DNA from: an uncultured Clostridia bacterium
GTDB lineage: Bacteria; Bacillota; Clostridia; TANB77; CAG-508
Assembly: GCA_948875265.1 (NCBI GenBank)
Contig: CAQRYF010000002.1
Location: forward strand, 2,628-66,627
Length of the DNA stretch: 64,000 bases
Reading direction: 5' to 3'
How positions within the stretch are numbered: the stretch's first letter is position 1; the number at the start of each line of letters is the position of its first letter. Below, in pieces: positions 20,773 to 21,741 of the stretch. The notes under the pieces are model-generated. The model made no database searches, was not told the DNA's origin, and saw nothing but the letters and a program-made list of their open reading frames with translations. The position numbers were made by a program, and so were the translations under genes.

Positions 20773-20805
20773 GTGTCCTATTGGGGACGTTTCCTAATAG
20801 GACAC
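20773..20805. repeat. family-A GC-rich palindromic repeat (GTGTCCTATTGGGGACGTTTCCTAATAGGACAC)
   Basis: Intergenic, pyk/thioesterase gap. Confidence 0.8.
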
Positions 20806-20831
20806 TTCAAACAAAAATCCATGTATATTGC

Positions 20832-21554
20832 TTATTTCAATGTTATAATAGCATGTATAATTTTTTCATCTTGGCTCTTAATTACTATTATATGTTCATT
20901 TTTAATTTTTGCATATTTACATACTACAGTTTCACCTAATTTTATTTCTTTTTTATAAGTTATTCTAACATTATCAAAAGGCCTTTGATTATATATTTCT
21001 TCTGGTAGTGCTTCATAGGCTAAATCTAAATAATATAAATTATGCATATGTTTATTTATGTCTATATCTCTTCGTAATACTGTATAAGTAATGCTAGAAC
21101 TATATTCCTCTGGCTCTTTTATTTTATCCAATTCTCTTTTAGAAAATACATCTTTTTCCTCTAATTTATAACTATTTACCATTTCTTCTGTTAATCTTGT
21201 CATTTTTCTGCTTCTAATATCTATTAAAGCCCATTTAGATGTTGCAATTGCACATAAATTGTTATTTTCATCATAAATTTCAAAATCACGGTAGGTAAAA
21301 AATTTATTCATTCCTTTCCCCCATGTGTTAATATTTAGAACTCCTCCATATTTAGGTCTGTTTATAACTTCTAATTTCCAATCTAATAGAATCCATCCAA
21401 CATTTGTCTTTTCAGTATCATTAGCTCCATATCCTGCCATATCAGAATGATATGCACCTATATTTTCTAAAAACTCTAATAAAGCTCTATTTTTTATTTT
21501 ATTACCTTTTCCAACATCCTTTAATCCTGGTCTAAACTTTTCTTTGTAAATCAT
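20832..21554 (-). CDS. acyl-ACP thioesterase
   Basis: Double hot-dog length and fatty-acyl-ACP thioesterase-like sequence. Confidence 0.7.
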   Translation of the reverse strand: MIYKEKFRPGLKDVGKGNKIKNRALLEFLENIGAYHSDMAGYGANDTEKTNVGWILLDWKLEVINRPKYGGVLNINTWGKGMNKFFTYRDFEIYDENNNLCAIATSKWALIDIRSRKMTRLTEEMVNSYKLEEKDVFSKRELDKIKEPEEYSSSITYTVLRRDIDINKHMHNLYYLDLAYEALPEEIYNQRPFDNVRITYKKEIKLGETVVCKYAKIKNEHIIVIKSQDEKIIHAIITLK

Positions 21555-21708
21555 TTTTGTTTTTTGCCTCCTAATTTATTATATCTATTATTATTTTTAT
21601 ATCTTATTAAATTATTTTTACTTTGTCAACAAAAATAAGCATCAGCATATACACCAATACTTATTTTCATTTATTCTAAGATATTACAGGACAAATGGTA
21701 CAACAAAA

Positions 21709-21741
21709 ATGTCCCAAACAGAAACGTCCCCAATAGGACAT
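21709..21741. repeat. family-A palindromic repeat, inverted relative to 20773..20805
   Basis: ATGTCCCAAACAGAAACGTCCCCAATAGGACAT, directly after the pgi stop. Confidence 0.8.

Follow-up and report, generated by a model that had tools for sequence, protein, structure and literature searches.

A candidate REP/RAYT-type repeat system in uncultured low-GC gut Clostridia

Among the described systems, those closest to the one considered here are the TIRtrons, or TIRYT elements, in which RAYT-like genes (RAYTs being the tyrosine transposases associated with repetitive extragenic palindromic, or REP, sequences) are accompanied by long inverted repeats, many with the motif GGGGWSAS and some of them self-complementary and moderately repeated (Di Nocera et al. 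2013, PMC3733652). The TIRYT class is subclass 2.1 of the TnpA-Y1 transposases, long proteins with a C-terminal helix-turn-helix (HTH) whose genes were reported to have no REP-like sequences beside them (Quentin et al. 2018, PMC6006769). Group 1 RAYTs, which are largely the same set as subclass 2.1, also occur in Clostridia, and their flanking-repeat counts are low (Bertels et al. 2017, PMC5581495). The survey of Di Nocera and colleagues (PMC3733652) reports tagged REPs in no Firmicute, and the words 'Firmicutes' and 'Clostridi' are absent from its text. Here we analyze a stretch of 64,000 nt with 26.6% G+C from an uncultured Clostridia bacterium (contig CAQRYF010000002.1 of assembly GCA_948875265.1), referred to below as the window, and a 33-nt palindromic repeat in it that we call family A. 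We consider it quite likely that family A is a set of REP/REPIN-type short noncoding hairpin repeats of low-GC gut Clostridia and that it is genetically tied to a RAYT-like HUH/Y1 transposase encoded at a single locus.

A transposase gene framed by the repeat in related genomes

The repeat is not confined to the few places at which a first-pass annotation of the window had noticed it. A motif scan with AACGTCCCYAATRGGACA of a collection holding one genome per species returned at least 112 stretches of 8 kb each (820 kb in total, the listed loci, designated by L numbers), in which the copies are intergenic. The motif is present in at least 46 genomes of uncultured low-GC gut Clostridia. The hosts of the listed loci are nearly all metagenome-assembled genomes (MAGs) of uncultured Clostridia with 24-31% G+C from animal guts (mouse, chicken, rabbit, goat, and others), and a few single matches in Actinobacteria or Gemmatimonadota among the listed stretches look like chance. 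Together the 112 loci hold at least 133 exact matches to the core and at least 164 matches at E<1e-3 to a hidden Markov model (HMM) of the unit built from all instances found. The nearest genomes among them are about 81-86% identical to the window in conserved genes.

A search of the same loci, first by a six-frame motif scan and then by profile, revealed a Y1 transposase of 257-290 amino acids (aa) in 5 of the 112 and a 122-aa fragment in a sixth (L013); the profile found no second copy of it in the 820 kb. The protein scores 63-64 bits with Pfam Y1_Tnp (cutoff 23), and its best NCBIfam model is REP_Tyr_transpos, the REP-associated tyrosine transposase, at 68.6 bits, which is under the equivalog cutoff of 80. 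Both the HUH motif (NHVH; H60 and H62) and Tyr119, in CRYIHQNP, are invariant across 21 homologs. When all PDB sequences were searched with a profile, the sole match was 4ER8, the E. coli TnpA-REP (E=0.027); a single-sequence phmmer search of the transposase against PDB gave nothing relevant. The top Foldseek match of an AlphaFold2 model (predicted local distance difference test score, pLDDT, 84) is again 4ER8, in which TnpA-REP is bound to a REP hairpin (E 5e-6, TM-score 0.73 on the target, 2.9 Å), and the next matches are the IS608, ISDra2, and IS200 transposases. The model also has an all-helical C-terminal region (163-255) beyond the Y1 core, for which Pfam matches among the 21 members are weak, namely HTH_28 (2.6e-4, one member), HTH_23 (two), and HTH_26 (four). 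Given a fold like that of 4ER8, together with HUH and tyrosine residues that do not vary, we infer that the transposase would bind and cleave the single-stranded hairpin of the unit.

The surroundings of the gene are constant in every species in which it was found, with mreB, a radical-SAM gene, a small open reading frame (ORF), the RAYT gene, radA, and disA. At every locus the RAYT gene is flanked on both sides by inverted family A elements whose '…GGGACA' ends point outward (upstream, …TAA followed directly by TGTCCCATTGGGGACGTTTCTGTTTGGGACATTTTGTCCCATTAGGGACAGATCTT…; downstream, …GAGATGTGTCCCAGATGGGACAAAATGTCCCAAACAGAAACGTCCCCAATGGGACA followed directly by TGGAGG…ATG, the start of radA); we refer to this end as the outer end of the unit. 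Protein look-ups added four further species with the same arrangement (P0115, seen in ten samples, P0038, P0047, and P0040), in which polA, SLT, and maf precede mreB, and this brings the inverted units around the RAYT gene to at least nine related species in total. RAYT loci make up 6 of the 112 listed stretches, and about 0.5 would be expected for a single-copy gene (about 0.4% per stretch, with genome size assumed to be 2 Mb). The stretches were chosen solely for the motif, and the number of RAYT loci among them is thus far above the chance estimate. Many short-read contigs of about 1 kb that carry the RAYT gene terminate inside the flanking units, which indicates that these units are multicopy in those genomes. 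The first-pass annotation had read the repeats as REP/BIME-like (BIME, bacterial interspersed mosaic element) and had advised a search for a RAYT/IS200-like tyrosine transposase gene; the inverted-repeat-flanked Y1 gene of related genomes supports that reading, in a version that is without the GTAG foot and is of the longer TIRYT/subclass 2.1 type.

Two features of the RAYT locus itself may be added. In all species (L042, L044, L049, L063, L090, L119, L129, and L136), an A-run followed by a hairpin and a T-run (AAAAAGTATAGCA…TGCTATACTTTTTT) is conserved between the upstream unit and the RAYT gene, about 60-120 nt before the start of the latter, and looks like a bidirectional terminator insulating the transposase gene. 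The neighboring radA is called as two ORFs in L129 (3798-5218; 157+257 aa) and L136 (3458-4823; 139+310 aa), and there is no repeat unit at the break in either.

The repeat unit, its copies in the window, and their turnover

The basic unit is a 33-nt imperfect palindrome centered on ACG, in the orientation ATGTCCCAAACAGAAACGTCCCCAATRGGACAT. An outer stem of 7-10 bp (ATGTCCC/GGGACAT; ATGTCCCA / TGGGACAT) is followed by a three-position mismatch bubble, and the inner part pairs only on the complementary strand, via G·U or G·T pairs, so that the complementary strand folds better as RNA. On the better strand, the folds of units lie below those of shuffled controls (z -2.7 to -8.4). No change is seen in the core GAAACGTCCCC, not even in units with altered stem arms, and a handful of variants are changed in both arms in a compensatory manner (TGTCGC/GCGACA, TGTCTCTTT/AAAGAGACA, TGTCCA/TGGACA). 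In many genomes an extra hairpin, AAGATGTGTCCCCAATGGGACA, precedes the unit to form a composite of about 55 nt (55-60 nt around the transposase); on the reverse strand this hairpin reads GGGGACAC, an exact GGGGWSAS, and the 33-nt unit reads GGGGACGT, a 7/8 match. Further inverted doublets are present among the listed related loci, and in MAG MGBC165941 (L007, L013, L029, and L083) and in L136 (3290-3400) there is a chimeric variant in which an insert of about 52 nt, TAGCTGTTTGAGCAAAGTGAATTACAGATATCTTATGCAAAAGG, takes the place of the left arm.

The unit does not correspond to an RNA family that is already known. At the gathering threshold Rfam recognizes in the window the RNase P RNA alone (bacterial class A, 11644-11993, minus strand, 297 bits) and leaves the family A units unmatched, and a permissive scan of the units gave either no match or matches to generic long-hairpin miRNA models that stay far under their cutoffs; these scans rule out a known RNA family, and no unit overlaps a tRNA or an Rfam RNA. 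The internal CGTC of the unit lies in loop or stem and not in an unpaired end tag. The 'CGTC-tagged REP' class of Di Nocera et al., considered for the AACGTCCCC core, was set aside, as it has an unpaired end tag, 8-9 bp stems, 4-5 nt loops, and no transposase association.

With up to three mismatches allowed, the window contains six occurrences of GTCCCCAATAGGACA, where 0.25 would be expected; none of 100 shuffles reached six. The HMM identifies exactly five full units in the 64 kb (E 6e-10 to 5e-8), with spans of 20774-20804 (minus), 21708-21741 (plus), 48308-48338 (minus), 48346-48379 (plus), and 56070-56103 (plus). This amounts to about one unit per 13 kb. The units have about 50% G+C, against the 26.6% of the window, and they alone account for its GTCC..GGAC hairpins. 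All five lie between genes or at gene ends, and one overlaps the last three codons of cysS. The units, and the genes around the first two, are as follows.

20773..20805, minus strand: family A unit; the minus strand reads GTGTCCTATTAGGAAACGTCCCCAATAGGACAC
21709..21741, plus strand: family A unit, ATGTCCCAAACAGAAACGTCCCCAATAGGACAT
48308..48340, minus strand: family A unit, left half of a head-to-head doublet
48347..48379, plus strand: family A unit, right half of the doublet, C-to-T variant CCCTAATGGG
56071..56103, plus strand: family A unit between infB and the next small gene
19230-20672: pyruvate kinase gene (pyk)
20832-21554: acyl-ACP thioesterase gene (PF01643)
21741-23054: glucose-6-phosphate isomerase gene (pgi)
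23228-24406: SpoIIP gene

Further gene products identified are GalE, CysS, IF-2 (from infB), and RbfA. The annotation had singled out the thioesterase gene as being bracketed by inverted copies, and the two quoted repeats are indeed present on either side of it in opposite orientation; the head-to-head pair that it placed between cysS and galE and the copy that it placed after infB are confirmed by the HMM and by the identities of the genes. The 20773 unit stands 26 nt past the thioesterase stop (20832-20834) and upstream of a promoter-like site before pyk (-35 at 20737). It can form a 16-bp hairpin on the plus strand and one of at least 11 bp on the minus strand, and the region 20765-20815 folds with -23.1 kcal/mol (z -7.1) and -20.5 kcal/mol (z -5.5), respectively. 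At 21709 the outer end (…GGACA, 21740) is flush with the TAA stop of pgi (21741-21743, minus strand). The two units of the doublet at 48308-48379 are 7 nt apart, and the whole doublet forms a single long hairpin with a folding energy of -37 to -42.5 kcal/mol (z -6 to -8). Its left half, 97% complementary to the 21709 unit, has its outer end 6 nt from the Shine-Dalgarno sequence of galE (48297-48301; start codon 48288-48286), and its right half contains the last three codons of cysS together with the TAG stop (48370-48368; the protein ends in …EIKQMSH). This stop exists only in the C-to-T variant, and the unit itself supplies the stop of cysS. The outer end of the 56071 unit lies at a distance of 8 nt from the stop of infB (56111-56113), and the small gene that comes next starts near 56039; the region 56060-56115 folds with -17.9 kcal/mol on the minus strand and -11.8 kcal/mol on the plus strand. 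In the relative L071, family A units likewise lie directly after infB.

Two other hairpins had been brought into connection with family A. The supposed variant at 23199..23230 has no HMM match. It is a minus-strand, terminator-like hairpin (ATGAGACACTTGGGACAGTCCCAATTTGTCTCAT, 23199-23231) followed by TTTTTAT directly after spoIIP, kept at the same site in the relative L010 with a compensatory change from TT/AA to AA/TT, and is an ordinary terminator; pgi, described earlier as flanked on both sides, therefore has family A on one side only, at 21709. The hairpin AAGGGGCGCGTCCCCTT, said to follow the stop of the gene at 824, is located at 809-825 and not at 822-838. It is flush with the stop at 824-826, and its relation to family A is limited to the heptamer GGGGACG, which otherwise occurs in the window only in family A units. 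This hairpin, beside the ORF 824-2488 (minus strand), is unique in the sequences searched and may be a remnant or unrelated.

Orthologous sites are filled in some genomes and empty in others. In L008 a 55-nt composite stands between a stop codon and a Shine-Dalgarno sequence where the window is empty (60772-60790, reading TAAAAGGGAGG), and filled and empty sites are likewise seen in L087 versus L104 and in L089 versus L059. In L010, pgi ends at the same codon without the 21709 unit (aactaat followed by TTAatatccc), an ordinary long hairpin being present in its place, and the site orthologous to 20773 holds no unit and a different insert. The mean identity of units is 0.91 within genomes and 0.78 between them, in a comparison for which the search pattern dictated 18 of the 33 positions, and each genome has a consensus of its own. 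The window comes from a bacterium of the mouse gut. Within the species, the thioesterase gene of the window recurs on mouse gut metagenome contigs and in GCA_022791895.1 with 99.7-100% nucleotide identity, and both units that flank it are present in 6/6 conspecific assemblies.

L010 also carries two inserts of about 200 nt, at about 3180-3395 and 5650-5850, which have inverted repeats at their ends and an interior in common (…gcaccgcataagcgatcag…gcgattggagcaac…). They are a different family, resembling miniature inverted-repeat transposable elements (MITEs), and occupy sites where the window has a family A unit or nothing.

Placement at gene boundaries and the competing explanations

If family A is of the REP/REPIN type, the transposase would recognize the folded single-stranded hairpin, cut it at its sharply defined outer end or close by, and then spread or maintain copies elsewhere in the genome. 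Doublets such as 48308-48379 would be the transposase-less, MITE-like form, and single units would be halves of a doublet. The inverted elements around the RAYT gene, with their '…GGGACA' ends outward, would resemble the ends of an insertion sequence. The short spaces at the ends of genes would be the only places in which copies persist, with the consequence that every copy would be transcribed within an mRNA, and the pair around the thioesterase gene would represent two independent insertions rather than a composite transposon.

A number of observations weigh against this reading. A profile search found no RAYT gene within the window, and the four candidate proteins P0115, P0038, P0047, and P0040 were traced to other species than that of the window. 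No GTAG or GTGG (the canonical GT[AG]G foot) occurs in the unit alignments, in which the stem is flanked by AAAA/ATGTCCC and by GGGACA/T plus variable sequence. Canonical REPs, which have this foot, go together with short RAYTs. Covariation in the outer stem is weak overall: in an anchored alignment the complementarity of a unit's own arms is 6.05 versus 5.91±0.06 for shuffled arms (an ungapped alignment is confounded by 1-nt register shifts). There is no polymorphism among conspecific strains, at 99.7-100% identity, and thus no indication that units are still moving on this time scale. The outer end has no constant target sequence, since its flanks vary (TTA, AGGAGG, TGGAGG, AAAGG…), so that a fixed target in the style of IS608 is not evident, and no target-site duplication was found there. 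Units in operon gaps show no strand bias, with 19 forward and 17 reverse. The variable flank and the absence of strand bias depart from IS608-like behavior. Finally, a separate terminator-like hairpin, read by eye, is still present downstream of the 21709 unit. Given this second hairpin, a terminator role for the unit, or the replacement of a terminator by it, is at most a possibility in the window.

The placement of the units was unexpected. A positional census with crude ORF calls covered 156 units with enough flanking sequence, or 131 sites once orthologous duplicates were removed. The outer end faces a gene stop within 60 nt in 60 of the 156 units, 29 of them at distance 0, and faces a Shine-Dalgarno sequence and start codon in another 53, the start mostly being 11-21 nt off and the Shine-Dalgarno sequence beginning 0-5 nt beyond the end in 36. 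When the set is made nonredundant, the outer end is at distance 0 from a stop in 22/46 cases and the inner end in 0/33 (Fisher p=4e-7), and a start codon lies at most 21 nt from the outer end in 37/49 cases and from the inner end in 3/20 (p=6e-6). Part of this asymmetry may come from an ill-defined inner boundary, as the inner end is often extended by the extra hairpin or by an A-run. About 15 genes read into a unit from its outer end, the unit being without a stop codon in five of its six frames, and nine genes (cysS included, and some of them orthologous duplicates) terminate at a TAG that belongs to the unit and is read in the frame ATG TCC CAT TAG, which exists in the C-to-T variant only. 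The window offers an example of each situation, at the flush pgi stop, inside the end of cysS, after infB, and before the Shine-Dalgarno sequence of galE.

Three causes of this placement are possible. Compact genomes might tolerate insertions only in the few bases between a stop and the next Shine-Dalgarno sequence, a deletion bias might shorten spacers to zero while selection keeps the hairpin, or the elements might truly be targeted to translation boundaries. At the level of RNA, the after-stop orientation gives a hairpin of -16 to -18 kcal/mol followed by U4-5 (GGGACAUUUU), and the other orientation is without a U-run; a terminator consensus scan did not call the full units. The stable G·U-containing hairpin and U4-5 would probably serve after a stop as a 3' stabilizer or weak terminator, and the opposite orientation would place a weaker hairpin just 5' of the Shine-Dalgarno sequence. 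In E. coli, REPs at most about 15 nt from a stop codon reportedly lower the expression of the upstream gene through ribosome stalling. One could go further and suppose that the elements are more than tolerated at gene ends, that the RAYT-distal terminus is placed or retained exactly at translation boundaries (flush with a stop, contributing a TAG, or next to a Shine-Dalgarno sequence), and that a subclass 2.1 TIRYT, of a type long believed to be without REPs, thereby maintains intercistronic punctuation hairpins which the host, with its streamlined low-GC genome, uses as terminators, stabilizers, or translation modulators; we put this forward tentatively, as a conjecture that more probably fails than holds.

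A rival explanation regards the units as RNA punctuation selected by the host (terminators, 3' stabilizers, or translation modulators), their spread and conservation being due to function and the association with the transposase being incidental or secondary. The excess of outer ends flush with stops and close to starts fits it, as do the nine genes that stop at the TAG of a unit, the hairpin and U4-5 of the reverse orientation, and the ordinary long hairpin that L010 has after pgi at the position of the 21709 unit. Such punctuation, however, does not explain why inverted units flank the transposase gene in at least nine species, nor does it account for the genome-specific consensus and the presence or absence of units between species; moreover, both orientations are equally common in operon gaps and the U-run is short. 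We regard this explanation as improbable. A punctuation role is compatible with the REP/REPIN-type reading as an added function, and is unlikely as the sole explanation.

Still less probable, in our view, is that the units are not mobile and are bound, as double-stranded DNA, by a nucleoid protein or a global regulator, perhaps by the HTH of the RAYT-like protein itself. The invariance of the core GAAACGTCCCC while the stem arms change would be in keeping with a binding site, and the helical C-terminal region with weak HTH_23 and HTH_28 matches in some members would provide a candidate reader. However, the units are found between a stop and a Shine-Dalgarno sequence or overlapping coding ends, and not at promoters, and their positions relative to predicted promoters are inconsistent; the insertion-type differences between species and the doublet and hairpin architecture better fit a mobile palindrome. 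The outward orientation of both outer ends, the same as around the RAYT gene, might suggest that the thioesterase gene is the cargo of a composite, transposon-like element bounded by its two inverted units. This is extremely unlikely: the order pgi-thioesterase-pyk is kept in L010 with no unit at either site, which rules out a composite transposon, the locus is identical in six conspecific assemblies, and asd is likewise bracketed by another family, family B, in a window that holds five family A units and other palindrome families, so that the bracketing of the thioesterase gene is a coincidence.

Two further candidates were discarded. The unit is a poor fit, by eye, to the consensus of the catabolite-responsive (cre) operator, and an ordinary IS200/IS605 insertion sequence does not agree with one conserved locus instead of several whole-element copies (among the 112 listed loci and the look-ups) or with the variable flanks of the outer end.

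Other features of the window and relation to known systems

The window contains other palindromes. Family B, with the core TTTTGGGGTCGGGTC, occurs at 55356-55420, where it forms a perfect-type hairpin of 32+32 nt between rbfA and a DHH-family gene, and at 62744-62783 and 63835-63874, in inverted orientation around asd (62846-63838, plus strand). Its build is like that of family A (a TCCCA/TGGGA stem and a G-rich GGGGWCG loop), and it is absent from all listed loci of other species. At 17612-17696, between der/engA and plsY, the 33-nt sequence AGTTGTCAAACGTTCCGGGTTTATTTGGCAACT and its complement form a perfect inverted repeat with 19 nt between the copies; its core recurs in five sources, and the orthologous site of L010 carries a family A composite instead. 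The adjacent plsY (PF02660; 16952-17597, minus strand) appears as two overlapping ORFs, 17274-17597 and 16952-17320, and the same split is called in the independent assemblies L113, L114, and L117. The ORF 40640-41233 (minus strand) includes about 16 tandem copies of a 30-nt unit, that is, a 10-aa repeat, at 40762-41238.

The system defined by family A and its transposase shares features with several described ones. With TIRYT/subclass 2.1 it has in common a long Y1/HUH protein (257 aa versus 165 aa for the E. coli RAYT) that includes an extra helical C-terminal region, and with the TIRtrons one gene per locus and long inverted repeats carrying a GGGGWSAS-type motif (GGGGACAC). As in some TIRtrons, the flanking repeat is dispersed elsewhere in the genome as singles, dimers, and clusters. 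Unlike subclass 2.1 and Group 1 as published, the flanking repeat is here itself a REP-sized palindrome and is common, and the C-terminal HTH, unlike that of subclass 2.1, is weakly detectable by Pfam. The host also differs, being a gut Clostridia lineage of 26% GC that is in neither the list of Di Nocera et al. nor that of Quentin et al.

The resemblance to the REP/BIME sequences of E. coli lies in palindromes that are imperfect, measure about 33-35 nt, contain an internal bubble, and are extragenic, often directly after stops, and found in inverted doublets, and the E. coli TnpA-REP (the RAYT of 4ER8), the best structural match, is likewise encoded by a gene between inverted copies. In contrast to E. 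coli, there is no GTAG at the foot of the hairpin, the transposase is 16% identical to 4ER8 and has an extra C-terminal domain, and the host is a low-GC Firmicute. The REPINs of Pseudomonas fluorescens (Bertels and Rainey 2011, PMC3116915) provide a parallel for the folding of the 48308-48379 doublet into one long hairpin, for singlets readable as decayed doublets, for a genome-specific consensus, and for a RAYT that is presumably inherited vertically at a single locus, as judged for the present system from the listed loci and look-ups. Here, unlike in those REPINs, the copies are mostly singlets or tandem composites of extra hairpin and unit, and the units are polar, with one sharp end abutting genes. 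Some units are read within an ORF, as are the intragenic palindromes known from Rickettsia (Rickettsia palindromic elements, RPEs) and the intragenic REPs (Di Nocera et al. 2013); unlike in these, only the last few codons are affected and the gene is ended by the TAG of the unit (after …MSH), and there are no in-frame internal insertions.

The REP/TIRYT kind of system is thus already known, and what is new is that, in a lineage of low-GC Firmicutes, a transposase of the type of subclass 2.1, the largest of the RAYT-like subclasses, is paired with a palindrome that is REP-sized and abundant. One practical consequence is that short-read assemblies are broken by the repeats around the transposase gene, and that gene callers may err at 3' ends and start sites. 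Nearly all descriptions of REP/RAYT systems concern Proteobacteria, and this lineage offers a Firmicute model of the coexistence of enzyme and repeat. If the exact abutment of the units to stops and ribosome-binding sites is functional, it would bear on the old question of what role REPs play for their host.

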